Origin: a virus
Taxonomy: Duplodnaviria > Heunggongvirae > Uroviricota > Caudoviricetes
Strand: one strand, 5' to 3'
DNA: 37,164 bases
Virus record (IMG/VR): IMGVR_UViG_2541047856_000006
Shown here: in pieces, positions 3,072-37,164 of the stretch
Numbering within the stretch: position 1 is the first letter of the stretch
Layout of the letters: each line of letters begins with the position of its first letter
Position numbers and translations under genes: made by a program
Notes under the pieces: model-generated
The model's input: the letters and a program-made list of their open reading frames with translations, nothing else
Database searches by the model: none
Told to the model about the DNA's origin: nothing

Positions 3072-3081
3072 CAGGTGCGTT

Positions 3082-3360: not shown

Positions 3361-3371
3361 AGGGCGTTGCG

Positions 3372-3724: not shown

Positions 3725-3810
3725 CCGCGCAAATAAGACCCTAGGTTAAATAAGAAAATGTGAAAACAATCCGCATTCGCGGAGGTATTCGCACACGCCA
3801 AGGAGGCGTA

Positions 3811-4229: not shown

Positions 4230-4337
4230 ACCTCAAGCCAGCAATAACTACTCGTAGAACGCCAATTTCTGTAACCGACCGCTTCTGAGTTTTTTGGCAG
4301 GAAGCCTTCGCACATCCTTAGTAGAGAGAATTGCAGC

Positions 4338-4727
4338 ATGATTGACGCTCATGACTTCACAAGATGGGTGCGCACACAGGACACCCGTCTGGCTCCCATT
4401 CTTCAGGGATTATTTGATCTCTACATCCGTGGTCGTGACAACAGAGCACGCACCACAAAACCGGAGAATGCGGACACCCTTTATTTCACAGTAGACGACT
4501 GCTACCGCGTGGATTTCACACCACACGGGCTGGCGTTGCACTGCCTGACACCACACGGCGAATCACTGCTGGCGTATTACGACTCCCCGGCCTCCGTATT
4601 TGCGGCAATGCTGGCGCATCGCACTGCTGGCGGGTGTGCCTCGCTGAGTGAATACACCGCTGAATTTAACCGCCTTTCCGCCATCTTCTCGCAGGAGTGG
4701 CAGCGCGTGACGGGATACCAGCCATGA
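4338..4727 (+). CDS. Hypothetical protein immediately upstream of A (position of P2 B; homology not established)
   Basis: 129 aa; its stop overlaps the A start (ATGA). Confidence 0.5.
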   Translation: MIDAHDFTRWVRTQDTRLAPILQGLFDLYIRGRDNRARTTKPENADTLYFTVDDCYRVDFTPHGLALHCLTPHGESLLAYYDSPASVFAAMLAHRTAGGCASLSEYTAEFNRLSAIFSQEWQRVTGYQP

Positions 4728-7625: not shown

Positions 7626-8585
7626 ATGAAAATTTGTATCGATGACGGCTCCACCAACATCAAGCTGGCATGGACTGAGAACGGCGAACGCCGCAACGCC
7701 ATCAGCCCGAACAGCTTCAAGTCGGAATGGTCTGCGCCGTTCGGTGGCACGCAGCCCGCGAACTACATGCTTGATGGCGTGCGCTATGGTTTTGATCCGG
7801 TCAGCGATCGCTTTGTCCAGACGACCGACACGCAATACCAGTACAGCGATGTGAATGTCATTGCCATTCATCACGCGCTGGTCAAATCAGGCATCACACC
7901 ACAGGAAGTGGATGTGGTTGTCACCCTGCCACTGAGCGAGTATTTCGACACAAACGCACAGCCGGACATGGCCAACATCAACCGCAAAAAAGCAAACGTC
8001 ATGCGCCCGGTGGCGTACCAGAACGGAAAAGCATTCACTATCCGTAACGTACGGGTTATGCCTGAATCCATTCCGGCTGGTTTTAAAGCACTGGCTGACA
8101 TGAGTCCGTTTGAATCCCTGCTGATTGTGGATTTAGGCGGAACCACGCTGGATGTGGCAAAGGTTCAGGGGCAACTGGCAGGTATCAGCCAGGTGTTTTG
8201 CGATCCACACGTAGGCGTTTCTCTGATGGCCAATGCCGTACTGTCGGTGATGGCCACTAACGGTATGCGCACCAGTCACCACATCGCCAATACCATTATC
8301 GAACATCGCCATGATGAAGCCTGGCTGCGCCAGCACATCCACAATGACGCGCATTACGCCAGCCTGATGGCGGTTATTCGTGAAAAGGAAGAAACACTGA
8401 AACAACGCGTGATCCGCGCGCTGGCGGGTTTTTCGGGTTACGGGCGGGTGATGGTTGTCGGTGGCGGGGCGGAGATTGTGGCACCCGCTATCCGCGAAGC
8501 CTGCGGAGTTAATGCGACTTTCATCGCGGACGGGGTGCCACAGTTTGCTCTGGTTAATGGGCTGTACGCAATGGACAAGGAGTAA
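7626..8585 (+). CDS. parM: Actin-like segregation ATPase ParM/StbA
   Basis: N-terminus MKICIDDGSTNIKLAW...ISPNSFKSEW...YSDVNVIAIHHALVKSGI closely matches the remembered plasmid R1 ParM; DLGGTT and VVGGGA phosphate-binding motifs present. Confidence 0.88.
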   Translation: MKICIDDGSTNIKLAWTENGERRNAISPNSFKSEWSAPFGGTQPANYMLDGVRYGFDPVSDRFVQTTDTQYQYSDVNVIAIHHALVKSGITPQEVDVVVTLPLSEYFDTNAQPDMANINRKKANVMRPVAYQNGKAFTIRNVRVMPESIPAGFKALADMSPFESLLIVDLGGTTLDVAKVQGQLAGISQVFCDPHVGVSLMANAVLSVMATNGMRTSHHIANTIIEHRHDEAWLRQHIHNDAHYASLMAVIREKEETLKQRVIRALAGFSGYGRVMVVGGGAEIVAPAIREACGVNATFIADGVPQFALVNGLYAMDKE

Positions 8586-8964: not shown

Positions 8965-9489
8965 ATGAGCGAAATCAACTATCAGGCATTACGTGAGGCA
9001 GCACAAAACTATCAATCGACGCTGGCGTGGTATGAGGCCATCGCGGATAACCCAAATGCTGAGCAGGATTGTAACGAAGCAGTGGCGGCGTTTAAGCGTC
9101 AAATCCGTCATCAGGAAATGGACATTATCGCCGAGCTGCTGGAAGAACTGGAAACCAAAGACAACAGGATCGCTGAACTGGAAAAAATCGCCACTGACCA
9201 TGCACTTAAATTCCAGAAAGCACAGGACGCATTAAAGCATACCGCTTTGCTGCATAGCCGGACGGCGCAACAAACAAATAATTTTGCAGTATCGCTTCCG
9301 GACATAAGCGAATATTTCATTAATGACGTATTTCAGCCCTTGCGATACGAGCGGGATGTTGAAAGAGCCATCATAAAGGCTGGCGGAAAAGCATTGTGGC
9401 AGGAGAAACACGAGGACAGAACGCATCAGTCCTGCGATGTAAATTGTGGATGGTTTAGCCCACTGACGACAGATAAAAATAACACCTGA
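8965..9489 (+). CDS. Hypothetical coiled-coil protein
   Basis: 174 aa; good spacing from an upstream AAGGAGA; central predicted coiled coil (ELLEELETKDNRIAELEKIATDHALKFQKAQDALKH). Confidence 0.55.
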   Translation: MSEINYQALREAAQNYQSTLAWYEAIADNPNAEQDCNEAVAAFKRQIRHQEMDIIAELLEELETKDNRIAELEKIATDHALKFQKAQDALKHTALLHSRTAQQTNNFAVSLPDISEYFINDVFQPLRYERDVERAIIKAGGKALWQEKHEDRTHQSCDVNCGWFSPLTTDKNNT

Positions 9490-21188: not shown

Positions 21189-23423
21189 ATGAGTACCACA
21201 ACACGAAAATTTAAAACCGTTATCACCGATACAGGTGCCAAAAAATTAGCTCAGGCAGCCGCTCCAGATGGTAAGCCTGTCCGCCTGACTCATATGGCCG
21301 TGGGCGACGGTGGCGGCACGTTGCCCACACCAGACAGTAAGCAGACCCGTCTGGTGCATGAGGTGTGGCGACACACTGTTAATCGCGTCATCCTGGACGC
21401 AACACATCAGAACCGCATTATTGCGGAGCTGGTTATTCCTCCTGAAACGGGCGGATTCTGGATCCGGGAAATTGGTGTATTTGATGAGCACGGCGATTTA
21501 ATCGCGGTGGGCAATACTGCCGAAAGTTACAAACCAACCGTTGCCGAAGGGTCCGGACGTGCACAAACATTTCGCACCATTCTGACCGTATCCAGCACGG
21601 CCACCGTGGCGCTTACCGTGGATAACACCATGGTGATGGCCACAGTGGATTACGTGGATGACAAACTGAAAGAGCATGAACAGTCACGACGTCACCCGGA
21701 CGCCTCGCTGACCGCAAAAGGCTTTGTTCAACTCAGTAGCGCCACTAACAGCGTGTCTGAAACGCAGGCTGCAACGCCGAAAGCGGTTAAGGCCGCGTAT
21801 GACCTTGCTAACGCAAAATATACCGCTCAGGACGCCACGACGGCACGAAAAGGCCTTGTCCAGCTCAGTAGCGCCACCAACAGCACGTCTGAAACGCAGG
21901 CTGCAACGCCGAAAGCAGTAAAGGCCGCGTATGACCTTGCTAACGCAAAATATACCGCTCAGGACGCCACGACGGCACAAAAAGGGATAGTCCAGCTCAG
22001 TAGTGCCACCAACAGCACGTCTGAAACACTGGCCGCGACATCGAAAGCGGTTAAGGCGGTAATGGATGAAACGAACAAGAAAGCGCCCTTAAACAGTCCT
22101 GCGTTGACCGGAACGCCAACAACGCCAACTGCGCGACAGGGAACGAATAATACCCAAATCGCAAGCACGGCTTTCGTTATGGCTGCGATTGCCGCCCTTG
22201 TAGATTCGTCACCTGACGCACTGAATACGCTGAACGAGTTAGCGGCGGCGCTGGGAAACGACCCGAATTTTGCGACCACCATGACTAACGCGCTTGCGGG
22301 TAAGCAACCGAAAGATGCCACCCTGACGGCGCTGGCCGGGCTTGCTACTGCGGCAGACAGGTTTCCGTATTTTACGGGGAATGATGTTGCCAGTCTGGCA
22401 ACCCTGACAGAAGTCGGGCGGGATATTCTTGCGAAATCGACCGTTGCCGCTGTTATCGAATACCTCGGTTTACAGGAAACGGTAAATCAGGCTTCTGGCG
22501 CATTACAGAAAAAACAGAACGGCGCAGATATTCCGGGAAAAGATACCTTCACCAAAAATATTGGGGCCTGTCGCGCATATAGCGCATGGCTGAATATTGG
22601 TGGCGATAGTCAGGTCTGGACAACTGCGCAATTTATTTCGTGGCTGGAGAGTCAGGGGGCATTTAACCATCCTTACTGGATGTGCAAAGGCTCATGGGCT
22701 TATGCAAATAATAAGGTCATTACAGATACAGGTTGCGGAAATATTTGTCTTGCAGGTGCTGTGGTGGAAGTTATTGGCACCCGCGGCGCAATGACCATAC
22801 GCGTTACCACGCCGAGCACGTCCAGCGGTGGCGGAATCACTAACGCTCAATTCACTTATATTAATCATGGTGATGCTTACGCTCCTGGCTGGCGACGAGA
22901 CTACAACACGAAAAACCAGCAGCCTGCATTTGCTTTAGGGCAAACAGGACGCAGGGTCGCAAATGATAAAGCTGTTGGCTGGAACTGGAATAGCGGCGTT
23001 TATGATGCAGATATCAGTGGCGCATCGACATTAATCCTCCACTTTAATATGAATGCGGGGAGTTGCCCTGCTGTACAGTTCCGCGTGAATTACAGAAATG
23101 GCGGTATCTTTTATCGTTCAGCGCGTGATGGTTATGGCTTTGAAGCTAACTGGTCAGAGTTTTACACCACAACACGCAAACCCTCTGCGGGAGATGTTGG
23201 TGCATATACGCAGGCAGAATGTAACTCAAGGTTTATTACAGGTATTCGCCTTGGCGGTCTGTCATCTGTTCAGACATGGAATGGTCCTGGCTGGTCTGAC
23301 AGGTCAGGTTATGTCGTTACTGGTTCAGTTAACGGAAACCGTGATGAATTAATTGATACAACTCAGGCAAGGCCAATTCAGTATTGCATTAATGGAACGT
23401 GGTATAACGCGGGGAGTATTTAA
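21189..23423 (+). CDS. H: Tail fibre protein (gpH-like), constant N-terminal part plus currently expressed variable C-terminal part
   Basis: 744 aa with three tandem ~43-aa repeats (VQLSSATNS.SET.AAT.KAVKA...); a recombination site lies inside the gene at 22453..22478. Confidence 0.9.
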   Translation: MSTTTRKFKTVITDTGAKKLAQAAAPDGKPVRLTHMAVGDGGGTLPTPDSKQTRLVHEVWRHTVNRVILDATHQNRIIAELVIPPETGGFWIREIGVFDEHGDLIAVGNTAESYKPTVAEGSGRAQTFRTILTVSSTATVALTVDNTMVMATVDYVDDKLKEHEQSRRHPDASLTAKGFVQLSSATNSVSETQAATPKAVKAAYDLANAKYTAQDATTARKGLVQLSSATNSTSETQAATPKAVKAAYDLANAKYTAQDATTAQKGIVQLSSATNSTSETLAATSKAVKAVMDETNKKAPLNSPALTGTPTTPTARQGTNNTQIASTAFVMAAIAALVDSSPDALNTLNELAAALGNDPNFATTMTNALAGKQPKDATLTALAGLATAADRFPYFTGNDVASLATLTEVGRDILAKSTVAAVIEYLGLQETVNQASGALQKKQNGADIPGKDTFTKNIGACRAYSAWLNIGGDSQVWTTAQFISWLESQGAFNHPYWMCKGSWAYANNKVITDTGCGNICLAGAVVEVIGTRGAMTIRVTTPSTSSGGGITNAQFTYINHGDAYAPGWRRDYNTKNQQPAFALGQTGRRVANDKAVGWNWNSGVYDADISGASTLILHFNMNAGSCPAVQFRVNYRNGGIFYRSARDGYGFEANWSEFYTTTRKPSAGDVGAYTQAECNSRFITGIRLGGLSSVQTWNGPGWSDRSGYVVTGSVNGNRDELIDTTQARPIQYCINGTWYNAGSI
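21717..22080 (+). repeat. Tandem ~129-bp repeats (about 2.8 copies) inside H
   Basis: Near-identical nucleotide blocks encode KG(F/L/I)VQLSSATNS(V/T)SETQAATPKAVKAAYDLANAKYTAQDATTA(R/Q); they also generate spurious antisense ORFs. Confidence 0.85.
22453..22478. other. Invertase crossover site (gix/hix-like), left
   Basis: TTATCGAATACCTCGGTTTACAGGAA inside H; inverted copy of the site at 25503..25528; matches the remembered Gin/Hin recombination-site consensus. Confidence 0.85.
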
Positions 23424-23425
23424 TT

Positions 23426-23959
23426 ATGATGCACTTAAAAAATATTACTGCTGGCAACCCTAAAACAAAAGAGCAATACCAGCTAACAAAGCAATTTAAC
23501 ATCAAATGGCTTTATTCAGATGATGGAAAAAACTGGTATGAGGAACAAAAGAATTTCCAGCCAGACACTTTGAAAATGGTCTATGACCATAACGGCGTTA
23601 TTATTTGTATTGAAAAGGATGTTTCAGCAATTAATCCGGAAGGCGCAAGCGTCGTTGAATTACCTGATATTACAGCAAATCGCCGGGCTGATATTTCGGG
23701 TAAATGGATGTTCAAAGATGGCGTAGTGATAAAGCGAACTTATACCGAGGAGGAACAGAGGCAGCAGGCAGAGAATGAAAAGCAAAGCCTGTTGCAACTT
23801 GTCAGGGATAAAACCCAGCTATGGGACTCACAGCTACGGCTGGGTATCATTTCCGACGAGAATAAACAAAAATTAACCGAGTGGATGCTCTATGCGCAGA
23901 AGGTCGAATCCACAGACACCTCCAGCCTGCCAGTAACGTTTCCAGAACAACCAGAATGA
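23426..23959 (+). CDS. G: Tail fibre assembly chaperone (gpG-like), expressed orientation
   Basis: 177 aa directly after H; paralogous to the minus-strand ORF at 23988..24515 (shared ...[12 protein letters not shown]...DITANRRAD...GKWMFKDG...). Confidence 0.8.
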   Translation: MMHLKNITAGNPKTKEQYQLTKQFNIKWLYSDDGKNWYEEQKNFQPDTLKMVYDHNGVIICIEKDVSAINPEGASVVELPDITANRRADISGKWMFKDGVVIKRTYTEEEQRQQAENEKQSLLQLVRDKTQLWDSQLRLGIISDENKQKLTEWMLYAQKVESTDTSSLPVTFPEQPE

Positions 23960-23987: not shown

Positions 23988-24515
23988 TTATTCAGGCTTT
24001 TGTGGCCATTCAGGATTTGCCGTATCCACACGGCTGACCAGAACACTGTAGCGTTCCCATGACTCCAATCGTGTGCGTTCCTCTTCCGTCGCCATATTCA
24101 GCCTGACAGCGCGTTCCAGTGGCTGAATAACGTTTTCTGCTTCGGAAAGTAACGCAGCCTTTTGTGATTCGGCCTGTTGTTGTTGCTCGTCTGCCGTATA
24201 AATCCGTTTAACCACAGCTCCGTCCTTAAACATCCACTTACCGGAATCATCAGCACGACGATTAGCTGTAATATCAGGAACCTCAACGACGCTATAACCT
24301 TCAGGGTTAAGCGTGGAGGCATCTTTGGTGATGGCGACAATAATATTATTTGCATCGTAAACAATCTTTATTGTGTCTGGCTGAAAGTTTTTCACTTCCT
24401 CATACCAGTTTTTTCCGTCTTCGGACCATAACCAGATAACATCAAAATTCTTTGTTAGCTGATATTGTTCTTTTGTTTTTGGATTTCCAGACTTAATATT
24501 TTTTAAATGCTGCAT
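23988..24515 (-). CDS. Alternative tail fibre assembly chaperone (G')
   Basis: 175 aa paralogue of G in inverted orientation, within the invertible segment. Confidence 0.8.
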
Positions 24516-24518
24516 AAA

Positions 24519-25511
24519 TTACACCTGTGCGACGTTATACCATGTGCCATTGATGTATTTTTGTATTGGTCTGAATACTGCCGGATCATCGCCATCAACT
24601 TCACCGACAATGCCAAGCCCCGTAATTGCATGACCTGATTTCTCATACATCACGCCTTTTTGCATAGTCTGAACAACACGTGTGCCAAGTCGGACATCTC
24701 TCACATAACGTGAGTCAAAATTACCATAATTGCCGGGAATAACTTGCGCACCGCAAAGCCAGTTCCCGTTATTATCCATGTACGCCTGACCATCGGTGCC
24801 ATTGGCTGTCCTTGAGTTATTAATCATGTAGATGCCAAATTGCTTGTTCCCCAGTCCACCTATCATGAACTTTCGGTCGGCGTGATTCTGGCGAAGTAAC
24901 GCCTGAGCGCTATCAGTGTTAACTATATTTTTCCCAAAGATAGCGTTGTTATCGCGCATCTGAATCCACATACCATTACTGCTGTTAATAGCAAAACGGT
25001 CTGAAAGTGTCTCCCCTGAAACATTAAGGCCACGCCCCATCGAAACAGCGCCAGTAGCGTTATTAATCCATAATGGCCTTAATCCGTTATAAGTCCCCAT
25101 GTTGTCACCGGAGTTTGTCAACATGAAGTATGTATTTGAACCATCATTACGAATAAAGAATCCGTAATTACCATAAGCAATACGTAGGCCGTTTGCTGAT
25201 TTTGATATGACTTCGCCATTTACAATGGCATTGACAAGAACATACAAAGCATCCCATTTAAGATTCATCAGGTCTTTTGTTGTGGTGCTTTGTTTGCTTC
25301 TCCATTTGAAATATTCATTGCCGTTGTCGCCTGTTTCAAACCACATGTATGAATCAGTGTCACCATCGGCATCATTTTTAAATCCAATCTTCGCCCAGTC
25401 AGTATTTCGAATCCAGGCAAGGATTGAGTCATTTTCAAAAGTAAGCCCACCGGACAAGGTATCGCCATTTTTTTGCACGGCGTTACCAGCTCTGTTTACC
25501 GTTTCCTGCAA
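24519..25511 (-). CDS. Alternative tail-fibre C-terminal variable segment (promoterless H' cassette)
   Basis: Begins inside the right crossover site with MQETVN..., the same residues (LQETVN) found at the crossover point within H. It would fuse to the constant part of H after inversion. Confidence 0.8.
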   Translation of the reverse strand: MQETVNRAGNAVQKNGDTLSGGLTFENDSILAWIRNTDWAKIGFKNDADGDTDSYMWFETGDNGNEYFKWRSKQSTTTKDLMNLKWDALYVLVNAIVNGEVISKSANGLRIAYGNYGFFIRNDGSNTYFMLTNSGDNMGTYNGLRPLWINNATGAVSMGRGLNVSGETLSDRFAINSSNGMWIQMRDNNAIFGKNIVNTDSAQALLRQNHADRKFMIGGLGNKQFGIYMINNSRTANGTDGQAYMDNNGNWLCGAQVIPGNYGNFDSRYVRDVRLGTRVVQTMQKGVMYEKSGHAITGLGIVGEVDGDDPAVFRPIQKYINGTWYNVAQV

Positions 25512-25528: not shown

Positions 25529-25582
25529 TGGCCGTTTCTGACCTGCATGGCATGATTTACGCTTTTGGACGGGAGATTCAGC

Positions 25583-26170
25583 GTGCTGATTGGCTATGTA
25601 AGGGTATCAACAAATGACCAGAATACAGACCTGCAACGAAACGTTCTTGTTTGTGCAGGATGTGAACAAATATTTGAAGATAAATTAAGCGGGACAAAGA
25701 CAGACCGACCGGGATTAAAACGCGCTTTAAAGCGCCTTCAAAAAGGTGACACGCTGGTTGTCTGGAAACTGGATCGCCTCGGGCGAAGCATGAAACATCT
25801 GATTTCTCTCGTCGGGGAACTACGGGAGCGAGGGATTAATTTTCGCAGTCTGACCGACAGCATAGATACATCTTCTCCAATGGGGCGTTTTTTCTTCCAC
25901 GTGATGGGTGCCCTGGCTGAAATGGAACGTGAATTAATTGTTGAACGTACACTGGCCGGACTGGCAGCAGCGCGCGCACGGGGGCGCACAGGCGGACGTC
26001 GCCCGAAGCTGACAAAAGAACAGCATGAGCAAATAGCAAGGCTGATTAAAAACGGTCACGACAGAAAACAACTGGCAATAATTTACGGCATTGGTACATC
26101 GACGATTTATCGTTACCACCCCGCAGGAGAATCAAGCGGAACAATAGAGAAGAGTCAGAAAACAAAATAA
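25583..26170 (+). CDS. Serine-recombinase DNA invertase (Hin/Gin/Cin family)
   Basis: MLIGYVRVSTNDQNTDLQRN...LVVWKLDRLGRS...GRFFFHVMGALAEMERELI... with a C-terminal helix-turn-helix. Start taken at the GTG at 25583 (ORF frame begins at 25565). Confidence 0.93.
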   Translation: MLIGYVRVSTNDQNTDLQRNVLVCAGCEQIFEDKLSGTKTDRPGLKRALKRLQKGDTLVVWKLDRLGRSMKHLISLVGELRERGINFRSLTDSIDTSSPMGRFFFHVMGALAEMERELIVERTLAGLAAARARGRTGGRRPKLTKEQHEQIARLIKNGHDRKQLAIIYGIGTSTIYRYHPAGESSGTIEKSQKTK

Positions 26171-26205: not shown

Positions 26206-26700
26206 TCAGAACAGCCCTTTAACTGAACTGGCCGCGCTGTTAAGAGATGATGTCACCTTATCTTTGAAGCCGGACAGCATATCGCTGAACGATGAGGATT
26301 GCAGGCGCTCCCGCAAATCCTCATCACAGCGTTCAAGGGTCAGTGAAAATTCTATCTTTTTCGCCTTACCGTAGCGATCAAACTCGGAACGGGTCGTATT
26401 CGTTCCGGTCAGGACATACATGCCGTAAATCTGCCCGACGCCATCAATCAAAGGCCAGGGTCGTCCTGTATACGCCTGCGTGGTCAGCAGCGACAGCGAC
26501 ACTTCGCCACCTGTAATTTCAGGATAAAGCACACCAGAAAGAACGATGCGATCATCACCTGCACCGATATACTGCCAGCTTGCTGAACGGTTAACGCGTT
26601 CATTTTTCACATGCCGCCAGCTTTTGTTTTGCTGTAACTGCTGATGCGGCAGCGTGCGCAGCTCAAAAACAAACATGCCGTAGATCATCATCATGGCCAT
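26206..26700 (-). CDS. U: Tail protein gpU-like
   Basis: 164 aa directly downstream of the tape measure gene on the same strand; size matches P2 U. Confidence 0.75.
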   Translation of the reverse strand: MAMMMIYGMFVFELRTLPHQQLQQNKSWRHVKNERVNRSASWQYIGAGDDRIVLSGVLYPEITGGEVSLSLLTTQAYTGRPWPLIDGVGQIYGMYVLTGTNTTRSEFDRYGKAKKIEFSLTLERCDEDLRERLQSSSFSDMLSGFKDKVTSSLNSAASSVKGLF

Positions 26701-26706
26701 GACTCC

Positions 26707-29550
26707 TCAATCTTTATCGTAAAAACTGCCACGCCCGGCACGGGCGCGCCGTTCCATTTCTGCCCTGACCATTTCACCGACCAGTTTCGCCAGTTCGCGG
26801 GGATTCTGTGTAACAACGTTATGCAGATGAACATGAATTTCACCGCCAAATCCGGAGGCAACAGGCTCCCGGTTACGGGAAGTTGCAGGAACTGATGCCA
26901 CTGGCGATCGTATGGCCTCTGCCACCGGGCGGGAGCTGGCCGCAACAACAGGGACCAGCGCCGGAGGCAGCGGAGCCGGAACCACAGGTGTGATATTAAT
27001 TGCGGGGGCAGGCTTACTGACCTGCGCAATCTTCCGCTCCTGCCACTCCCCACGAACGGCAAGTGCGCGGGGCAGGTTCTTAAAGACAATATCGCCGGGG
27101 CCAATACGTTTTTTCGTCTCATCAACCAGCTTACCTGTGTTATCAGCAATTTTGCTGAGTCTGCGTAGCGTACCGGTATTGCTGTCTGTGAGCGGTTTGT
27201 TGTCTTTGGGTTTATCACCTCCGGTGCCATTGCCATTTTCCACAGGCTTCGGCGGATTGATTTTCGCCAGGTCCCCCTGAAGCAAGGCAACCTTGTCCTG
27301 AAGAATGGCCGCACGCTGTGCGTCTTCGATTTTCTTGCGCGCCCTTTCCGCTTCATCCGGAAGCACACCGAGCTTTTCAAGTATCCACGCCAGCGTATCC
27401 AGCAACATTTTTGCAGGTGTCAGAACAAGTTGTAACGCACCGCCAAGAACGTTACCGAATATCTCGCCAGCACTGGTACATTTATCCAGCGTTTCCTTGC
27501 TGGACTCCATCGGTGACAGCAGCGATTTAAACCAGTTAAACACCTGGCTGATCCCACTCCCGATTGCGTCAAAAACAGGACCAAACCGTTCAAAGGTTTC
27601 GCGCAACGGGGTCAGCCTTTCCATAATCCCGCTGAACACCCCGGCAAAAAATGCCCTGATGGGATCCCAGTATTTCCAGATAAGAACGGCAGCTCCGGCA
27701 AGCGCAGCCACGATAAGACCAACCGGACTGAACAACGCCCCGATAGCGCCTCCCAGTAAAGAAACGGAACCCGTCACCATTCCCCACAGCGCAGGCAACA
27801 CCCTGACGACATTCATTGACCGGGTAAGAATGTCAAAACCAAGACGCAGGGTGGCCAGCTTCCCGTAAAGCACCCCAATAACCAGCGACAACGAGCCAAC
27901 CGTTGCAGTCATTGCCAGCAGTGCACCGCCTGCAATCAGTAGCTGGCGCGTCAGTGCGGGATGGGCCTGCGCCAGCGCCGTCACCTTTGATACCACACGC
28001 GTGAGCCACTGCGTGACAGAACGCAGCGGACCGTCAATCAGATCTGCAATGCGGATGCGCAACCCTTCCCATGCACTGCTGAGTGATTTCAGATCGCCGT
28101 CAAGGTTGTTGGCCATAACCTTTGCTGTGCGTTCAGCCTCACCGCGTGCGCCTTCAAGTTCTTTTCTCAGTTTAGGTAAGGAACCGTCACCCGCTGCATC
28201 AACGAGCGCCATAAACGATGTGAAAGCCTCTTCTCCGGCAATGTCCTTAAAGAACGATACCCGGTCAACTTCCCCGTATTTGCGGGTGGCTTTATAAAGA
28301 TCGGCCTGCACATCCTCCATCGGGCGCATTTTGCCGTTCGCGTCAGAGACTGCCACACCAAGCTCTTTCAGCGCCTCTGCTGCCGCCTTTGGCGGTGATG
28401 CCAGACGAGCCAGGCTGGCACGCATTGCCGTCCCGGCATCACTTCCCCTGATACCCATATTCGCCAGCACGCCCGCCATCGCTGCGGCCTGCTCCAGCGA
28501 TATTCCCAGCTTGCCCGCCACCGGACCTGCATATTTCATGGTTTCGCCCAGTGCGCGAAGGTCAGTGTTGGTACGGGTAAACGCTGCGGTGAGCGTGTCA
28601 CCGACCCGGTCCATCTGGTCGGCAGAAAGACCGAACTGCGTCAGGATGTTTGAGCCAATATCCGCCGTCTCGCCGAGATCCATACCGCCAGCCGTTGCCA
28701 TGCTCAGCACACCGGGAAGCGCAGCCTGAATGGCCTGTGGTGTGAAGCCAGCCATTGCAAGAAATGCCTGTCCACTGACGGCATCTCCAGCGGTGAACTG
28801 CGTTTCAGAGCCAAGTTTTAACGCCTGCTCACGCAGCGCCTTAAACTGTGGGCTGTTCTGGTCGATTCGCGTCAGCGCCTGAACGCGGGACATCTCTTTC
28901 CCGAACCCGATCGCAGGCTGCAAAAAACGCCCGGCAGCATAGCCGCCCGCCGCTGCCGCACCAATTGCCAGCGCACCACCTGTTTTCAGTTTTCCCGCGG
29001 TTTCCTGCACGCGCGAATACCGCTCACGCGCCCGCGTTACACGCGCAAGCGCCTGCCGTTCGCGTTCAAGCTGGTTGTTGTACTGTTCGGTGCGTCTGAT
29101 GGCCTGCTGGATGGTGTTATCGCTGCCTGTCAGGGAAATGCCGTGGCGTTTCAGCTCTCCGCCAAGCTCCCGCATTTTCTGAATTTCCCGTGTGCGCGAT
29201 TCATTCAGGCGTTCAAGCCGGGTGCTTAACTGCTGCATCAGCTTTTGTTGTTTTTCGCTGAGCACTGTACCCGTGCGTTGTAACTGATTAAGGGCGTTAA
29301 GCTGGCGTCGTGCTTTCACGATACCCGCATCCGCTTTACTGACAGCGTCGCGGGCGCGCTCAAATGAACGCGCCTGACGCTCGAGATTTTTGATCGCCCC
29401 CTGCGTTCGCTGGATGGAGTCACCAAACTGCCCCATCAGGCGGCGGGCGTTTTCGGCAGGCCGGGTCAGCCTGTCAACGGCGCTGAAAGCGACCCGGATA
29501 TCAAGAGTCTTCATTGTCTGCATTCCCGCTGCGAAGTGCCGCCCGCTCAC
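26707..29550 (-). CDS. T: Tail tape measure protein (gpT-like)
   Basis: 947 aa, largely helical with Ala/Gly-rich hydrophobic central segments; position after E/E'. Exact start uncertain (M at 29550, 29523 or 29514). Confidence 0.85.
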   Translation of the reverse strand: MSGRHFAAGMQTMKTLDIRVAFSAVDRLTRPAENARRLMGQFGDSIQRTQGAIKNLERQARSFERARDAVSKADAGIVKARRQLNALNQLQRTGTVLSEKQQKLMQQLSTRLERLNESRTREIQKMRELGGELKRHGISLTGSDNTIQQAIRRTEQYNNQLERERQALARVTRARERYSRVQETAGKLKTGGALAIGAAAAGGYAAGRFLQPAIGFGKEMSRVQALTRIDQNSPQFKALREQALKLGSETQFTAGDAVSGQAFLAMAGFTPQAIQAALPGVLSMATAGGMDLGETADIGSNILTQFGLSADQMDRVGDTLTAAFTRTNTDLRALGETMKYAGPVAGKLGISLEQAAAMAGVLANMGIRGSDAGTAMRASLARLASPPKAAAEALKELGVAVSDANGKMRPMEDVQADLYKATRKYGEVDRVSFFKDIAGEEAFTSFMALVDAAGDGSLPKLRKELEGARGEAERTAKVMANNLDGDLKSLSSAWEGLRIRIADLIDGPLRSVTQWLTRVVSKVTALAQAHPALTRQLLIAGGALLAMTATVGSLSLVIGVLYGKLATLRLGFDILTRSMNVVRVLPALWGMVTGSVSLLGGAIGALFSPVGLIVAALAGAAVLIWKYWDPIRAFFAGVFSGIMERLTPLRETFERFGPVFDAIGSGISQVFNWFKSLLSPMESSKETLDKCTSAGEIFGNVLGGALQLVLTPAKMLLDTLAWILEKLGVLPDEAERARKKIEDAQRAAILQDKVALLQGDLAKINPPKPVENGNGTGGDKPKDNKPLTDSNTGTLRRLSKIADNTGKLVDETKKRIGPGDIVFKNLPRALAVRGEWQERKIAQVSKPAPAINITPVVPAPLPPALVPVVAASSRPVAEAIRSPVASVPATSRNREPVASGFGGEIHVHLHNVVTQNPRELAKLVGEMVRAEMERRARAGRGSFYDKD

Positions 29551-30030
29551 GCCAGCTAACCACTTCGCCGGGCGTCATCATGAAGATTTCGGCGGGCGAC
29601 CAGTTAAAAATAACGGCAATATCTGCCACAAAGTCTTCTATGTGCTCAAAGCACACAACCGTGATCAGGCTTCCGTCGCCTGTTCGTTCTTCCCGCCAGA
29701 GTCCGCACCGCTCAAAAAATTTACGGCAACCACACATAACTGAATAAAGTCACGGGATGCCATTTTTTTGATCGTCACTTCATCCAGTCGCGGTGATGTC
29801 ACGCGTGACAGCAGCGTAAACATGGATTCCGCTTTCAGATTCAGCACATCAGACAGCGACAAATCTCGCAGAGATCCAGCCTGCTCAATAGCCCCGGTGA
29901 TCTCCACATACGTGATTTTTTCGCCGCCTCGCTCAATTGGTTGGGTAAGTTTTACGCCACGCTCACTGGTTTCTTTCACAGTGTCAGCAACTACCGTGTT
30001 TTCGGTATCGATGTTTTTCGTCTCTTTCAT
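29501..30030 (-). CDS. Tail assembly chaperone fusion E+E' made by -1 programmed frameshift
   Basis: The E frame (29665..30030) and the overlapping -1 frame (to 29501) meet at the slippery heptamer TTTTTTG (minus strand; plus-strand coordinates 29713..29719). Confidence 0.6.
29665..30030 (-). CDS. E: Tail assembly chaperone (gpE-like)
   Basis: 121 aa between the tail tube and tape measure genes, the conserved position of E. Confidence 0.7.
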   Translation of the reverse strand: MKETKNIDTENTVVADTVKETSERGVKLTQPIERGGEKITYVEITGAIEQAGSLRDLSLSDVLNLKAESMFTLLSRVTSPRLDEVTIKKMASRDFIQLCVVAVNFLSGADSGGKNEQATEA

Positions 30031-30084
30031 CAGGAAACTCCTTTCAGTCAGAGGCGACGCACTGCGCCGCCTGCATATTACTTA

Positions 30085-30597
30085 TCAGCCAAGCCCGAGC
30101 GCGGAACGGATGCGATCGGGCACAATGTCCTTGCCGTCCTTCCGGTAAATGAAGTTCAGCAGGTCAATCTCCCACAACGGGCGATCGTTAACACTCAGCT
30201 TGTAGTAGGTGTTTTTAATGGCGTAAGTGTGTGATGTGGCTTCGCCCTGTTTGGCTTCCCCCATATCAATTTCCGTCACACGTCCGCGCATTTCGACTTC
30301 ATACAAGTCGCTTTCTGCATCGGTGTAGTATTCACCCGCAAAACGCAGCAGCGTGCCGTCAATCGTGCCGCCATACTTAAGGAACAGCTCACGAACTGCG
30401 CCCCCCATGACAAAGCTCGCATCAAGCGCGGAGTCGTCCAGGCCGAGATCAATACTTACCGCCCCCATCATGCCACCACCCCGGTAGCTGTCGGTTTTGC
30501 GCGTCAGCTTAGGCAAAGTGACGGACGTCACCTTACCCACTTCGTTTTCACCATCCACAAACAGCGTAAAAAAGCGAAGATGTTTTGGCACAGCCAT
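30085..30597 (-). CDS. FII: Tail tube protein (gpFII-like)
   Basis: 170 aa; TLPKLTRKT...YRGGGM... and KQGE motifs match the remembered P2 FII. Confidence 0.88.
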   Translation of the reverse strand: MAVPKHLRFFTLFVDGENEVGKVTSVTLPKLTRKTDSYRGGGMMGAVSIDLGLDDSALDASFVMGGAVRELFLKYGGTIDGTLLRFAGEYYTDAESDLYEVEMRGRVTEIDMGEAKQGEATSHTYAIKNTYYKLSVNDRPLWEIDLLNFIYRKDGKDIVPDRIRSALGLG

Positions 30598-31781
30598 CAG
30601 GCACCTCCCAGCACCGCAAATGCGGGTTCAAAGTATTCATCAGTAAACGTCTGGTAAAGCTCCATGTCTTCCAGTGGCGGAACGGGCGTATATTTGTAGC
30701 GAATACGCACACGCCCCTGACGTAAATCCGTGGTGCTGTTATCCACCACGTCATACCAGCACTCCGCGCCAATCAGTTTCCCGGCAGTCACCAGTGAATC
30801 CAGTTTTGCCCTGATGGCACTGATAACATCCTTCACGTTCGCAGGCGTCAGTGGACTGTCGATGGTTTCAAACTGCGCTTCCGCAATTGAATCAGCCAGC
30901 ACCTGTGCGGTTCGGGTATACACCTCAAAAATGTAGGCGTTCGTTTCCGGTGTGCGGTTGCCCCAGAAGCGGAACCCGTTGCGACGAATAATGGTCGTGA
31001 TTTCTTTGTTGTTGAGGCTGTTGGCATCGCAGTCTTCGGCCTGCCACGACCAGAACACATGCCTCGACATCCCCAGCACATTTTTAACCGGAACGTTGGA
31101 CAGCGATTTGTGCCAGCCCTGCTCATGGTCAATGTACGCACGAAGGCCGCACGCATAAGCAGGCGCGGGGAACGTTTCGTTTTCGCCACTTTTCGGGTTG
31201 TAGGCGATGAAGTCCGGCCATAAGAGCATCACTTCACGTTCGTTGAATTTCTGGCGGTAGGTAATCGCTTCAGCCATCGTGTTACAGCCGTGACATGAGG
31301 CATACACAAATGCGCGCAGTTTACCCGCAATCACGCACAGGGATTTTGTCACCGCCTCCGTGTCCAGCTCCGGCGCGGCCAGAATACGCGGACGGTATCC
31401 GATGCTTTCATCCTGCTCTGCAACAAGCAGCGCATACATCCCCGTATAGCTGCCGTCATCCTCAGAACCACCGATAACCAGTTGATCCTGCGTCTTTTCG
31501 TCTTCTTCTTTGTGTTCAGCCACGCGAACGACGATCACCTTTGTGCTCACCTGGTCTGCGATGGCCTTAAGCGCACGATAAAGCGTCCCCGTTGTTCCGC
31601 ATTTTCCCAGCACGTCATTGACGCGGGTCAGCAGTGTGGGCTTGTTCAGCGGGAACAGCTTCGCGTCCGCATCATCCGCCGTTGCCACGATACCGATAAC
31701 GCTGGAATCAACATCGTTAATCGCTGTTACCAGGTCGGTATTTTCCGTAACACGGGCACCATGAAAACGAGTTTCACTCAT
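30597..31781 (-). CDS. FI: Tail sheath protein (gpFI-like)
   Basis: 394 aa; FPLNKP, EQGWHKSLSNV, IRRNGFRFWGNRT, YTPVPPLE match the remembered P2 FI. Confidence 0.93.
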   Translation of the reverse strand: MSETRFHGARVTENTDLVTAINDVDSSVIGIVATADDADAKLFPLNKPTLLTRVNDVLGKCGTTGTLYRALKAIADQVSTKVIVVRVAEHKEEDEKTQDQLVIGGSEDDGSYTGMYALLVAEQDESIGYRPRILAAPELDTEAVTKSLCVIAGKLRAFVYASCHGCNTMAEAITYRQKFNEREVMLLWPDFIAYNPKSGENETFPAPAYACGLRAYIDHEQGWHKSLSNVPVKNVLGMSRHVFWSWQAEDCDANSLNNKEITTIIRRNGFRFWGNRTPETNAYIFEVYTRTAQVLADSIAEAQFETIDSPLTPANVKDVISAIRAKLDSLVTAGKLIGAECWYDVVDNSTTDLRQGRVRIRYKYTPVPPLEDMELYQTFTDEYFEPAFAVLGGA

Positions 31782-33048: not shown

Positions 33049-33095
33049 GCAACTGGGATGCATTAGTTCAGACACAGGCTAGCATGCTTACGTAC

Positions 33096-33134
33096 GGCAC
33101 AGAAGCAAACCTAATTGGAGTTTTGCTCTGTGCC
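33096..33134 (+). other. Stable stem-loop downstream of D (possible terminator)
   Basis: GGCACAGAAGCAAA-loop-TTTGCTCTGTGCC (~13-bp stem with one bulge) followed by TTTC. Confidence 0.4.
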
Positions 33135-33258
33135 TTTCACCGACTGGCCAAGTGTAACCCGCCTTACACCAAGACGAATTATAATCGGCAACAATGTCAG
33201 TAGTTACTATAAATGTTTATAAACAAAAATTTATTTCTCCGAAGCTACAAGCACTACA

Positions 33259-36057
33259 CTAAATCTCAGCAATCTTTTTTTTACTGTGCTGTTCTATTAT
33301 CCACTCTGCTTCCGCTTGGTATTCATGAGCTAACTCTCGAAGAATTCGGGCAAATCGATGAAAGCCTAGAAGTTCCATTGCATCAGACTTAGTATGATAT
33401 TGTTGGGCCAACTCCAATTCCGGTTTACCTTCAGGGTCAACAATGTAGACACCACGCGAATTTATTACCGCATTCTTATAACCAGTACGCACTTTATCAA
33501 GTTCACGTCTATTCAAAAACTCGGCCAGTTCTGGAAGTATCCAATGCTCGTCATTTGCAGGGCTAAAAATTAATATGCTTCCAATTCTATGATAAGCAAA
33601 ATCTAAATGGCCTGACTTTTCGCATTCTGTTTGAACAAAATCAAACCAGTTATTAAACGCATTGGCATCAAACTTGCCTTCAGCATCAACACCCGGAATC
33701 TTTTTCCAATCATCAAGTAAATAGCGTGAGTTTTTGGCAATATTTATTTCACTTTCAGATAGTTCTTTACTTGCTTTTTGAAATTCTGATCGATACGCAT
33801 ATTGAATGACTTCACAAAAAAAACTGGGTTCACTTGCTAGTTTTTTCTCTAATACTTGAGGATGCAACGAATCATTGGCTCCCCTGTTAATTACAGGCAG
33901 GTATGCCCATTCAATCTTTACTAAGTCGTCATCTGAAACAGTGTTATCATTTTGAATATAATTCACAAGTTCATTAAATGAGTGAATATCAAACCGCTCA
34001 ATATTTTCTGTGGTTCTAATTGATTGCAATAGAGCAAGCACAACCTTGCTGCTATCAACTAAATTATCGATATGTAAAATTCGAGATAAACAATCTATTG
34101 CCATCAAGGGACGGTCTACTTTAATCAAGCAATCTACAGCAAAATAAATTTCTTCCGTTGAATCACAGCAGTATGCATTAACATGGGTATTTTTCCAATA
34201 CTCGAAAGGAAAATCATCAAATGAAGCGTTTAATGCATCCCACGTTTCTTTTTTAAACGGTAACAAAAGAAAAAAAGCAATCTTTTCTTGAGCACTCCAG
34301 TCATTAATAACTGCCAACACCCATGATTTTCCTTCTCTGTAGTTCTTAGCCTGTACATAACCAGAAGCAAGAGAATTTTCCTTTTTAATATCACTAACAA
34401 TAAGTTTTTTCAGTATATCTAAAGGGATTTCTAGATCTTCTGCGACCAGACTACTACCAACAAACTCAGGTCTTTCAATAGAAAGAGAGAATTCTAAGAC
34501 TCCGTCAATACCATTAACAGTATATATTTCGTATATTGATTGCCCTCGTTCTTTTGTCAACCTTTCTTCTTGGTCCCGCCAGTTTCCATTTTCATCAAAT
34601 AGGAAGTAACTATTTTGTGCAAAAAGTCGTTTGCTATAAAGCATAGGATTTTCGGGCTTCAAGACTGTAGAAACATCTTTGATTTTTTCATTCTGTTCTG
34701 GTTGTATTGCCCAATAAGCACCTGAGAATCTTTTGTTTTTGTTATAAACTTCTAAACATTTTTCCCACACCGCCAACTTCAATTCAGCACTATCTGTTTT
34801 TTTAGAAAAATCATACAATAATTTAATTGCATCATCGAATTTAAATGGCGCTAAACTACCAATATTTTCAACTAAATCAACAAGTCTTAATGATGATTTA
34901 CTTGCCAATTCAATTGTTAATTGAGTGTATCTTTCAATCTGAGTACGACACTCATCATCCGATGGCCTTTTATTAAAACCGTTAGGAATAAAGTTTCTAA
35001 AAGTTGGAATATGTGTGCCAGATGTTACTTGCGTGTTGTTGGGTAACAACTGAACTAAAACACGCCATGCTGTATCGGGCCACTCCCTTGCCAATGCTTT
35101 GAAAGCAGCAATACGTCTATCTATATCAGCTGTAGTATGAGGAAGCCATGGTAACAATATGTTGATTATCGAGTTAAGTGGCCTGTTAGCCCAATTGCCA
35201 CCAGGATCATGGCTATCCAGCTCCCCTAATATTACTAAAGAGCGAGATAAATAGTTAGGCGCCCAAGCTAATCCTTCAATAGCCCATAGCAGTCCTGTCA
35301 TATAATTCCGACCTGAAATTCCACCGATACCTTCCTGTGCAAAAAGTGAATCAAATGGCTTGTCTTGGTGAGATGCAGCATTTTCCACTTCGTCGATAAA
35401 ACAGTCAGGAGCACTTTCCGCAAGCATAACTTGAATATCTTGCGTACTAGCCCATAATTGCCAGCTAGAAGCCGAAAAAACCTCTTTAACCACACTTGAG
35501 GCGCAATATTGCCCTTTATATTTTGAGCAATTAGTAAGTAACTCTTGCTTTGTTGCAACTAATGCCAACCCTTCGGATAGTCCTTTCCTTATTAATCGGC
35601 TATGTGGTAAAACCTTCCCATAAATTACTGCTGCATAACGCTCTTCAGGTGCCAGTTCAAATTGTGGGTCGATTGTTTTAAAAACGGATACAACAGTCGT
35701 CCGAAACAAATCCAAATGATCATCGAATAATCTTGACGATACCGTTTGAAATGTTTGTATTCTATCTTTAAAACTCCAAGAACCTCTCTCATGAATCAAA
35801 GGACTATCTTGCATCCCTTCAATTATTCTTATTTTTCGAATCCAACTGTCATATGACTCGCCAATAAGGCTTGTAATTATATTAATATCACCATTATTTT
35901 TTTCATCCCAGCAACCGACTAAAACAGCAATCGCTAACTCAGTCGCATAATCAACATTATCAATATTGTATATAGTTAAGTTACCAGCAACATTATGGCC
36001 TGTTCCGGCATGATTTTGACTAACTGAACTGCAGCTATGAATGTTATCCATAGACAC
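33259..36057 (-). CDS. Large hypothetical protein (932 aa) in an AT-rich island; function unknown
   Basis: Long uninterrupted ORF, AT-rich and clearly different in composition from the flanking phage genes. No Walker A, helicase or recognisable nuclease motif was seen by eye. GTG/ATG start coupled to the stop of the upstream small gene. Confidence 0.65.
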   Translation of the reverse strand: MSMDNIHSCSSVSQNHAGTGHNVAGNLTIYNIDNVDYATELAIAVLVGCWDEKNNGDINIITSLIGESYDSWIRKIRIIEGMQDSPLIHERGSWSFKDRIQTFQTVSSRLFDDHLDLFRTTVVSVFKTIDPQFELAPEERYAAVIYGKVLPHSRLIRKGLSEGLALVATKQELLTNCSKYKGQYCASSVVKEVFSASSWQLWASTQDIQVMLAESAPDCFIDEVENAASHQDKPFDSLFAQEGIGGISGRNYMTGLLWAIEGLAWAPNYLSRSLVILGELDSHDPGGNWANRPLNSIINILLPWLPHTTADIDRRIAAFKALAREWPDTAWRVLVQLLPNNTQVTSGTHIPTFRNFIPNGFNKRPSDDECRTQIERYTQLTIELASKSSLRLVDLVENIGSLAPFKFDDAIKLLYDFSKKTDSAELKLAVWEKCLEVYNKNKRFSGAYWAIQPEQNEKIKDVSTVLKPENPMLYSKRLFAQNSYFLFDENGNWRDQEERLTKERGQSIYEIYTVNGIDGVLEFSLSIERPEFVGSSLVAEDLEIPLDILKKLIVSDIKKENSLASGYVQAKNYREGKSWVLAVINDWSAQEKIAFFLLLPFKKETWDALNASFDDFPFEYWKNTHVNAYCCDSTEEIYFAVDCLIKVDRPLMAIDCLSRILHIDNLVDSSKVVLALLQSIRTTENIERFDIHSFNELVNYIQNDNTVSDDDLVKIEWAYLPVINRGANDSLHPQVLEKKLASEPSFFCEVIQYAYRSEFQKASKELSESEINIAKNSRYLLDDWKKIPGVDAEGKFDANAFNNWFDFVQTECEKSGHLDFAYHRIGSILIFSPANDEHWILPELAEFLNRRELDKVRTGYKNAVINSRGVYIVDPEGKPELELAQQYHTKSDAMELLGFHRFARILRELAHEYQAEAEWIIEQHSKKKIAEI

Positions 36058-36377
36058 TACCTCGTAATTTTATTTCCACCAATATTATCACCAGTGCCAC
36101 TATGGTTTTGAATAATGACAGTTGTTGCATGAGGTTTTATAGACGAGAGTATTTTTTGAATTTCACTACTATCCAATAGTTTTCTTTCAATTGCTATTTC
36201 ACTCATTTCATCGTTCAAAGACAGTTTTTCAAGTTCTTTAGCTAAAGCAGGGGCCACAGCCTCATCAACAACCCAATTTTTTAACTTTGCTTTTATTGAA
36301 GTTGCAGTAATCGAAACATGATGTTTGAGCATGTCATAAACTATGCCAGAAAGTATCGTCGAAGATAAAAAATCCAT
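36057..36377 (-). CDS. Small hypothetical protein (106 aa), first gene of the island operon
   Basis: Same strand and composition as the 932-aa gene; its C-terminus (IIQNHSGTGDNIGGN) echoes the N-terminus of the large protein (SQNHAGTGHNVAGN). Confidence 0.6.
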   Translation of the reverse strand: MDFLSSTILSGIVYDMLKHHVSITATSIKAKLKNWVVDEAVAPALAKELEKLSLNDEMSEIAIERKLLDSSEIQKILSSIKPHATTVIIQNHSGTGDNIGGNKITR

Positions 36378-36572
36378 AACAATTTTCCCTTAACGTAAGA
36401 TATTTACTATCAAGATACATTTTAAATCGAAGAAAGAGCTTTTACCACGTATATTTATTGGCTAATAACATGATAATTCGACTATCTGCTATTCGCTTAA
36501 AACGAAGAGTTAGTTGGAATTATAGCCAGCACGACCTAGAATAACATCAGCACTGCGTTAAGGGAGGTCGCT
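36378..36572. promoter_or_regulatory. AT-rich divergent promoter region between the island operon and ogr
   Basis: 195-bp AT-rich spacer between divergently transcribed genes; no specific promoter elements assigned. Confidence 0.35.
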
Positions 36573-36893: not shown

Positions 36894-37157
36894 ATGGTCG
36901 GAGGGAATACCCGAAGGCCAGATGTGGAAAGGCCCCGGAAAACATTTCTGTTTAACCGAGGCCCTAACCGCATTACCTTGACAAGTGAAAGGTTAGCGCC
37001 TCTCCGGAAAAGGAGCAAGTGCTATGTCGCAAAAATCGCTTACGGCCATCACGTTCTGCGTGACGGCAATCCTCATCATCTGGATGCTGCACGGTTCGCT
37101 GTGCGAAATACGGATGAGCTTCTGGGGAGCGGAGTTTGCGGCGTTCTTACAGTGTAA
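36894..37157 (+). CDS. Possible mok-like overlapping reading frame of the hok locus
   Basis: 87-aa ORF that fully overlaps the start of the hok-like gene in another frame, as mok does in hok/sok loci. Call rests on position only. Confidence 0.3.
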   Translation: MVGGNTRRPDVERPRKTFLFNRGPNRITLTSERLAPLRKRSKCYVAKIAYGHHVLRDGNPHHLDAARFAVRNTDELLGSGVCGVLTV

Positions 37158-37164
37158 GCAGTAA
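37024..37164 (+). CDS. hok: Hok/Gef-family type I toxin (small membrane peptide)
   Basis: 46 aa MSQKSLTAITFCVTAILIIWMLHGSLCEIRMSFWGAEFAAFLQCKQ: N-terminal transmembrane helix, then the SLCE(I/L) and E.AAFL.CK motifs of Hok-family toxins; AAAGGAG upstream. It ends at the window edge. Confidence 0.7.
   Translation: MSQKSLTAITFCVTAILIIWMLHGSLCEIRMSFWGAEFAAFLQCKQ

Follow-up and report, generated by a model that had tools for sequence, protein, structure and literature searches.

The 37,164-nucleotide stretch of viral DNA recorded in IMG/VR as IMGVR_UViG_2541047856_000006 (Caudoviricetes), the whole of which is referred to here as the window, is by gene content a nearly complete P2-like prophage. 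Its minus strand carries a small gene directly upstream of a large one, and a glycine-rich motif lies near the C-terminus of the small protein and near the N-terminus of the large one. At a probability of roughly 80%, these two motif copies are the two halves of a BASS11-type amyloid signalling pair in a two-gene, prophage-borne abortive-infection system, of which the small protein would be the effector and the large one the sensor. The model for this reading is the abortive-infection system Bab/Agp of E. coli ECOR25, in which Bab (109 residues) is the executioner and the adjacent Agp (1094 residues; TPR, GreA/B-C, and PIN domains) shares with it the ~20-residue BASS11 motif (Ibarlosa et al., bioRxiv 10.1101/2024.11.07.622273). 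BASS11 has been established as an amyloid by electron microscopy, thioflavin T and Congo red staining, solid-state NMR, and prion-like propagation, the amyloid state is needed for defence, and T5 infection leads to Agp-dependent BASS11 assembly; templating, membrane relocalisation, and abortive infection have all been demonstrated for this pair (bioRxiv 10.1101/2024.11.07.622273).

The small protein terminates with ...TTVIIQNHSGTGDNIGGNKITR followed by the stop codon (the longer C-terminal stretch reads KPHATTVIIQNHSGTGDNIGGNKITR), and the large protein starts with MDNIHSCSSVSQNHAGTGHNVAGNLTIYN. The best ungapped 15-mer between the two proteins, which is the top match anywhere in the pair, comprises 9 identical residues out of 15; none of 5000 shuffles of both proteins reaches 9, the maximum being 8, seen twice. 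The original prediction, made from the letters alone, that both island proteins have this motif in common is thus borne out, and so is its view that the motif is conserved at the protein level and is not a recent duplication, the DNA of the two copies being identical at 35 of 54 bases, with different codons for six of the nine shared residues. The motif was also placed at the junction of the two genes, and both copies do lie in the interval given there; they do not stand at the very ends of the proteins, since the residues KITR follow the motif in the small protein and 9-11 residues precede it in the large one.

Judging from profile matches, the small protein is a member of the Bab/GapS6a family with a genuine BASS11 tail. 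It hits the Pfam family HetE-N over its full length (PF20701; 6.3e-39, 132.8 bits for a cut-off of 25, residues 1-102), the NCBIfam model GapS6a (NF047935; 6.8e-40, 135.6 bits for a cut-off of 90), and the PDB entry 9h9v, "Babybass", corresponding to Bab(1-90) (7e-18 over residues 1-83). RefSeq annotates it as gapS6a, and it is ~50% identical to full-length Bab; PADLOC-DB v2.0.0 returns no match at E<=1. The Bell-like "Babybell" helical domain spans residues 1-84. The AlphaFold2 (AF2) monomer model places five helices in residues 6-79 and leaves the tail unstructured from residue ~84, with a predicted local distance difference test score (pLDDT) below 50 at residues 86-93 and 100-103. In an alignment of the effector with Bab and 15 other homologues, the invariant columns are M1, L9, S10, G11, Y14, D15, K18, W35, and E60 and, in the tail, Q90, H92, G94, G96, D97, and N98, the 17 sequences including Agp-type Bab. 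Residues G11, Y14, D15, Q90, D97, and N98 of the effector are the counterparts of Bab G11, Y14, D15, Q92, D99, and N100, while D2 is present here and is not invariant among the homologues. In Bab/Agp, defence is abolished by Bab G11K and by the β-breakers Bab N100P and Agp N12P, BASS11 foci are lost with Bab D99A and Q92P, and Bab-dependent incompatibility in a fungal assay is lost with D2A, G11A/K, Y14A, D15A, D99A, and N100P (bioRxiv 10.1101/2024.11.07.622273).

The tail core of the effector, QNHSGTGDNIGGNK, is identical at 12 of 14 positions to that of E. coli Bab, QNHSGSGDNIIGNK. The Bab sequence used in this comparison (P0186) is full length and 99% identical to the crystallised chain; its tail, ...IGSVTQNHSGSGDNIIGNKNIYK, reads T85-N-I87-G-S-V90-T-Q92-N-H-S-G-S-G-D99-N100-I-I-G-N-K-N-I-Y-K, a numbering that agrees with the paper. 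The effector side fully fits the pattern Q-x-H-x-G-x-G-D-N-[IV], and the sensor side is a variant of it that keeps Q, H, G, G, and N and has a histidine at the aspartate position. Both by pattern and by residue identity, the shared motif matches the BASS11 amyloid signalling motif. Alignment of homologues, which had been proposed as a check, finds it kept at the same position on both sides, in the case of the sensors within one subfamily. Among the effector homologues, 89 of 97 have Q-x-H-x-G-x-G-D-N within their last 40 residues, four have one substitution, and four are truncated fragments, so that every full-length homologue keeps the tail motif, at identities down to 42%. On the sensor side, 38 of the best 120 homologues exhibit [VIL]-x-Q-x-H-x-G-x-G-H-N-[VI]-A-[GR]-[DN] at residues ~5-26; in this subfamily Q, G, G, and N are invariant even at ~45% overall identity, and the histidines at positions 14 and 19 are each found in 37 of the 38 members. 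The sensor N20 is the equivalent of Agp N12. The two sides differ consistently at one position, with G-H-N in the sensors (37/38; H19-N20, positions 35992-35997) and G-D-N in the effectors (89/89; D97-N98, positions 36084-36089). Agp-type sensors have either version, and two of them (loci L106 and L107) carry the aspartate.

By sequence, the 930-residue partner differs from Agp, having nothing but the tag in common with Agp-type proteins. It returns no match at E<=1 with Pfam, NCBIfam, or PADLOC-DB v2.0.0, and in particular PF20698, the PIN-TPR-GreABC family (TPR, GreA/B-C, and PIN), is not matched in Pfam and NCBIfam at this threshold, whereas genuine Agp-type partners of Bab homologues do match it (L003, L004, L106, and L107). 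A BLASTP comparison of the large protein with an Agp-type protein aligns only the 24-residue tail, VSQNHAGTGHNVAGN versus INQVHSGVGHNVGGD. No NACHT or NB-ARC P-loop NTPase domain is matched in Pfam, and the AF2 model is devoid of an alpha/beta NTPase core. This model, calculated from a 51-sequence alignment (mean pLDDT 87.5), is almost wholly helical, with residues 1-22 below 50, and it resembles only HEAT/ARM solenoids in fold; a profile made from the family alignment matched no PDB sequence, and RefSeq annotates the E. coli copy as "hypothetical protein". The sensor is therefore predicted to be a large alpha-solenoid with a flexible, disordered N-terminal tail. The trigger proposed for Agp is RNA-polymerase hijacking sensed through the GreA/B-C domain (bioRxiv 10.1101/2024.11.07.622273). 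Because these domains are absent from the protein described here, its trigger cannot be the RNA-polymerase/GreA/B-C mechanism of Agp.

A Bab-like gene lies directly upstream of the sensor in every locus for which the DNA was examined (E. coli, Citrobacter, Sedimenticola, Psychromonas, two metagenomic prophages, and IMG/VR contigs). The gap between effector and sensor is 5, 12, or 14 nucleotides, and the relative frame of the two genes varies from one locus to another. Seven further distinct loci, of this sensor class or of the Agp class, show the same pairing of a C-terminal motif in the effector with an N-terminal copy in the product of the neighbouring gene. Moreover, the two tails vary together: effectors ending with GDNIG-G-N-K pair with sensors having GHNVA-G-[ND]-L, those ending with GDNIG-R-D-K pair with GHNIA-R-D-[LM] or GDNIG-R-D-K, and in one locus (L008) the partner tails share 13 of 16 residues. 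Over 11 distinct pairs, the match between cognate tails exceeds that between permuted partners with p = 0.00015, and with p = 0.014 for the BASS11 class alone, although these values ignore shared ancestry and are indicative only. Four loci (Vibrio cyclitrophicus, Moritella viscosa, and two metagenomes) encode the same sensor core with a different tail, QSQNVGDNSTALQVGDNAQI, the N-terminus being QSQNVGDNSTALQVGDNAQITL. The gene upstream is in these cases not Bab and codes for a 64-68-residue peptide that carries the matching motif, ends with QKVGNNSSANQFGDNANVTI, and possesses one strongly hydrophobic, single transmembrane (TM) segment (Kyte-Doolittle 1.83); no Pfam family was matched. The motif common to both partners is Q-x-V-G-x-N-S-x-A-x-Q-x-G-D-N-A. 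This second tail may be another amyloid-like signalling motif, which would act through a minimal effector in the membrane, the TM peptide. A groundwater metagenome contig (L006, 5999-9007) encodes, after a Bab homologue, a protein of 1003 residues or more with a BASS11 tail, SIVQTHSGTGDNILGDKIV, in which the ~25 residues after the tail resemble neither the alpha-solenoid core nor Agp-type N-termini; judged by its sequence, this partner may belong to a third sensor class.

The pairs also bear on what the two copies are not. A motif left without function by the splitting of a fused gene or by a local duplication at the junction would account for the position of both copies, which abut the gene junction, and split versions of related sensors do exist, with separate overlapping open reading frames (ORFs) in L043. 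However, fission leaves one copy and not two, the peptide is kept across homologues at 42-45% identity despite the different codons, the tails co-vary between partners, and where the tail is of another type, so is the effector. The variable spacing and frame argue in addition against any recoding or fusion explanation, and a programmed-frameshift fusion of the two genes was ruled out for the same reason. Finally, no Bab-core fusion is seen in the top 120 sensor matches, as checked from precomputed Pfam annotation and from the N-termini. Such a leftover is thus barely conceivable, and the idea of a remnant of an ancestral fusion put forward in the original prediction is not retained. Its first suggestion, a shared interaction tag, was right in substance, the motif being conserved in both partners, co-varying between cognates, and matching BASS11; its second, a modification tag, finds no support. 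A recognition site for a third factor acting on both proteins, be it a protease, a modification enzyme, or a phage protein, is highly improbable: short conserved terminal peptides are indeed typical of leader or degron sequences, but the loci inspected contain no conserved third gene, their neighbours differing in every context. For Bab/Agp, no protein beyond the pair is needed, and the unrelated fungal amyloid pair HET-S/R0 can stand in for the tail (bioRxiv 10.1101/2024.11.07.622273), which points to self-recognition rather than to an external reader.

A more serious contender is a homotypic docking or adaptor tag, in which non-amyloid pairing of β-strands, as in the effector-associated domains of other conflict systems, would hold a soluble complex activated by release or allostery. 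An adaptor is expected to show the same position and co-variation, the sensor histidine facing the effector aspartate could reflect a specific heterotypic contact, and the EAD10 adaptor stands at the N-terminus of a PIN-TPR-GreABC system, at the position taken by effector domains in others (Kaur et al., eLife 2021, PMC8195603). Nevertheless, the near identity of the effector tail core to an experimentally amyloid motif whose amyloid state is required for defence, together with its G/N/Q-rich composition and alternating hydrophobic residues, which it shares with other BASS motifs, makes mere docking unlikely. Amyloid signalling between the two tails thus remains the preferred explanation.

Relatives of the sensor form a large family, in which 567 homologues were identified at E<=0.001 among 8000 candidates scored. 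An exhaustive profile search with the core yields 6,853 representative clusters at E<=1e-3 and 3,852 at E<=1e-30, clustered at 50% identity, and at least 588 species-representative genomes encode a core relative. These relatives span Proteobacteria, Chloroflexi, Planctomycetes, Cyanobacteria, Firmicutes, Nitrospirae, and methanogenic archaea. The core has 72 invariant columns in 51 sequences, many of them tryptophans, and contains the block DSHDPGGNWANRPxNSIxDILLPWLPHTTA. It is always C-terminal, and what precedes it varies. The commonest N-terminal domains, of ~288 residues (74 of 149 representatives) and ~365 residues (32/149), are not assigned to a known domain, and 22 representatives have no N-terminal extension. 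Assignment of the ~288-residue domain ("STGGGGxHFE...TDD...QxK") to Cap4/LmuA-like PD-(D/E)xK nucleases was considered and is not supported, hhalign against the LmuA-like N-terminus of P0060 giving a probability below 1%. Other relatives have at this place a SIR2 domain (PF13289; PADLOC pAgo-associated SIR2, 6e-122), a LmuA-like nuclease (PADLOC, 3e-32), the Pfam domains TIR_2, PNP_UDP_1, GT4-conflict, FRG, or DUF4062, or a weakly matching DUF4145-like domain (E = 0.006, below the curated cut-off). With PADLOC, only the N-terminal SIR2 and LmuA-like domains of the relatives match, and never the core. DSR2 is a single-chain defence protein that associates a SIR2 and a HEAT-like domain, and relatives that combine an N-terminal SIR2, TIR, or nuclease with a long C-terminal alpha-solenoid follow the same design principle.

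Judged by these domain assignments, the N-terminal repertoire of the relatives is the effector set of prokaryotic conflict systems, and it parallels that of the PIN-TPR-GreABC proteins, in which the N-terminal adaptor can be replaced by one of 13 effector domains, including HetE-N (Kaur et al., eLife 2021, PMC8195603). As relatives carry enzymatic domains at the same N-terminal position, the BASS11 tail would therefore occupy the effector slot of the sensor family, replacing a fused enzyme by an effector recruited in trans. Most relatives of the large protein do lack the motif, an observation that had been named as one that would speak against a conserved tag, but an enzymatic effector domain sits exactly there, which supports a tag that couples the sensor to its effector rather than refuting it. 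In Nitrospirota and some Deltaproteobacteria, the relative starts at core residue ~67 (L043, L048, L062, L065, L080, and L081). In L043, the one locus without extension that was inspected and in which the split structure was seen, overlapping ORFs at 2983-4005 and 3995-6610 encode, respectively, the N-terminal domain joined to the initial ~30 residues of the core, and what remains of the core. Since several genomes have this short form, it probably represents a genuine two-gene version and not a sequencing error.

If the chain of events resembles that of Bab/Agp, the small protein, with its Bell/HeLo-like helical domain and hydrophobic N-terminal helix, would stay inactive until its C-terminal tail is converted. 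A phage cue would alter the sensor, in the simplest case by making it oligomerise, and thereby gather several N-terminal tails that could adopt a cross-β fold. This nucleus would template the matching tail of the effector, whose conversion would free its N-terminal helix to damage the membrane, so that the infected cell would die before phage maturation. That the same chain operates with an alpha-solenoid sensor is inferred by analogy. Consistent with it, both tails are of low confidence (disordered) beside confident folded domains in the AF2 monomer models. Several points weigh against this interpretation, in addition to the shared ancestry that tempers the co-variation values. The sensor tail has a histidine where the effectors have an aspartate, and substitution of that aspartate in Bab (D99A) abolishes foci formation; by analogy, the sensor tail may not self-nucleate as the Agp tail does. 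The core is unusually conserved for an immune receptor, E. coli and archaeal copies being 38-41% identical, which could mean an enzymatic or housekeeping-linked activity and not direct recognition of a phage protein. Lastly, oligomerisation of the sensor core is assumed, and the systems from which amyloid formation, toxicity, and resistance to phage are extrapolated, Bab/Agp and GAPS6, have sensors unrelated to this one.

Compared with Bab/Agp, the locus has a homologous effector, a BASS11 tail at the same place with the same key residues, an effector gene that comes first and abuts a collinear sensor gene, and a location in a prophage or defence island. It departs from it by a sensor devoid of PF20698 and by a sensor tail with G-H-N instead of G-D-N; elsewhere, the same effector family pairs with PIN-TPR-GreABC sensors. 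The GAPS6 system of the Vibrio GMT islands comprises GapS6a and GapS6b, the latter with TPR and PINc domains, and both proteins are required (Mahata et al., bioRxiv 10.1101/2023.03.28.534373). It is likewise a two-gene anti-phage system, and the small protein described here passes the GapS6a model; its partner, unlike GapS6b, has no NCBIfam match, and under the rule that both proteins are required the locus would not count as GAPS6. A motif at the effector C-terminus and at the N-terminus of the adjacent receptor is also the arrangement of the Bell/NOD-like receptor (NLR) pairs BASS1-10 of filamentous bacteria and of fungal HET-S/NWD2, which have collinear genes and G/N/Q-rich motifs as well (Dyrka et al., bioRxiv 10.1101/2020.01.06.895854). 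In contrast with these, the sensor is here not a STAND NTPase, and the genes are carried by a prophage in a unicellular enterobacterium.

Table 1. Coordinates of the features discussed; positions are those of the window, except for loci named by an L number.
Feature	Position	Strand	Basis and remarks
Effector gene, bab/gapS6a homologue	36057-36377	minus	ORF; 106 residues plus stop
Sensor gene	33259-36051	minus	ORF; 930 residues from ATG
Effector motif-coding segment	36063-36116	minus	within 35941-36120, the interval of the original prediction
Effector-side BASS11 tail, residues 85-106, TTVIIQNHSGTGDNIGGNKITR	36060-36125	minus	invariant columns
Sensor-side BASS11-like tail, residues 10-27 from ATG, VSQNHAGTGHNVAGNLTI	35971-36024	minus	alignment; within 35941-36120
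Conserved all-alpha solenoid-like core, ~890 residues (~36-925)	33277-35946	minus	presumed sensing/oligomerisation module
Effector stop codon TAG	36059-36057	minus	overlaps the alternative GTG of the sensor gene
GAGG, Shine-Dalgarno-like, for the sensor gene	36060-36063	minus	read from sequence; within the 3' end of the effector gene
Low-GC cargo island	33049-36572		composition profile; both genes inside
gpD, PF05954	31807-33048	plus	Pfam; borders the cargo island
ogr, Ogr_Delta PF04606	36573-36833	plus	Pfam; borders the cargo island
Single-TM peptide ORF, L007	4835-5029		overlaps the start of its sensor
Single-TM peptide ORF, L103	2338-2532		overlaps the start of its sensor
Single-TM peptide ORF, L104	915-1109		overlaps the start of its sensor
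Single-TM peptide ORF, L105	1233-1439		overlaps the start of its sensor

The effector and sensor genes are probably translationally coupled, because the TAG stop of the first overlaps an alternative GTG start of the second (at 36057, giving 932 residues) and the GAGG lies 8 nucleotides ahead of the sensor ATG. A scan for promoters and terminators reported fewer promoter-like sites than in shuffles and found no terminator. The 3.5 kb island that contains both genes has a GC content of ~35% (about 0.32-0.44) against ~53% (about 0.50-0.58) in its flanks. The same island context between gpD and ogr is found in E. coli 19AR1724, and the arrangement is present in 7 of 5,426 complete E. coli genomes, a distant blastn across E. 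coli genomes giving nothing beyond these seven loci. One variant, at 100% length, was seen on 563 Enterobacteriaceae contigs. Homologous pairs are also found within other prophages, amid tail genes, and tblastn with the small protein against a phage collection returned no match.

The remainder of the prophage exhibits further features of its own. The canonical P2 order is FI-FII-E-T-U-D, with all genes co-directional. In the window, the block comprising the sheath, tube, E, tape measure, and gpU genes lies on the minus strand (26206-31781), opposite to the tail-fibre genes H/G (21189-23959), gpD, and ogr on the plus strand. A resolvase-family invertase gene (25565-26170) stands at the left edge of this minus-strand block, beside a minus-strand alternative tail-fibre tip (24519-25511) and its assembly protein (23988-24515), and E. 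coli 19AR1724 has the same arrangement of tail block and invertase. Directly ahead of the Q/P packaging genes, in the other cargo spot of P2 (7626-9489), are an actin-like segregation protein of the ParM/StbA type (7626-8585; PF06406, 7e-82) and an Ead/Ea22-like protein (8965-9489); that a P2-like prophage has a ParM hints that it may have the option of being maintained like a plasmid. At the prophage edge, directly after ogr, an ORF (37024-37164) encodes a Hok/Gef-family toxin; the corresponding gene of E. coli 19AR1724 is annotated Hok/Gef and is followed by ihfA-pheT-pheS. The sensor locus of Vibrio cyclitrophicus (L007, 8031-11420) and an E. coli prophage copy (L102, 10575-13960) both adjoin pheT/pheS, a shared neighbourhood that is probably a coincidence or a common integration hotspot.

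The BASS11 motif and the small protein, as Bab/GapS6a, are known already. No description of the pairing with this sensor, of the sensor family, or of the second tail with its small TM effector was found in the literature and family libraries searched. The chances are about even that the 930-residue partner gives first access to a large family of immune sensors of prokaryotes, undescribed so far and with a swappable N-terminal output, in which the fused enzyme has at least twice given way to an amyloid-like tail of ~20 residues that sets off a separate effector at the membrane, once with BASS11 and Bab and once with the new motif and the 64-residue TM peptide. This would be a candidate defence family lying outside the coverage of the Pfam, NCBIfam, and PADLOC copies searched. 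Amyloid signalling in phage defence has so far meant one characterised pair, Bab/Agp, with a trigger tied to GreA/B-C and PIN, and the present locus would have the same executioner and tag wired to an unrelated sensor. Three questions thereby become testable, namely whether the tag is portable, whether specificity is encoded in the tails (the Asp/His asymmetry and the co-varying positions), and what the widespread sensor family detects. If this interpretation is true, amyloid signalling would be a general, portable output module of anti-phage sensors and not a peculiarity of Agp or of NLRs.

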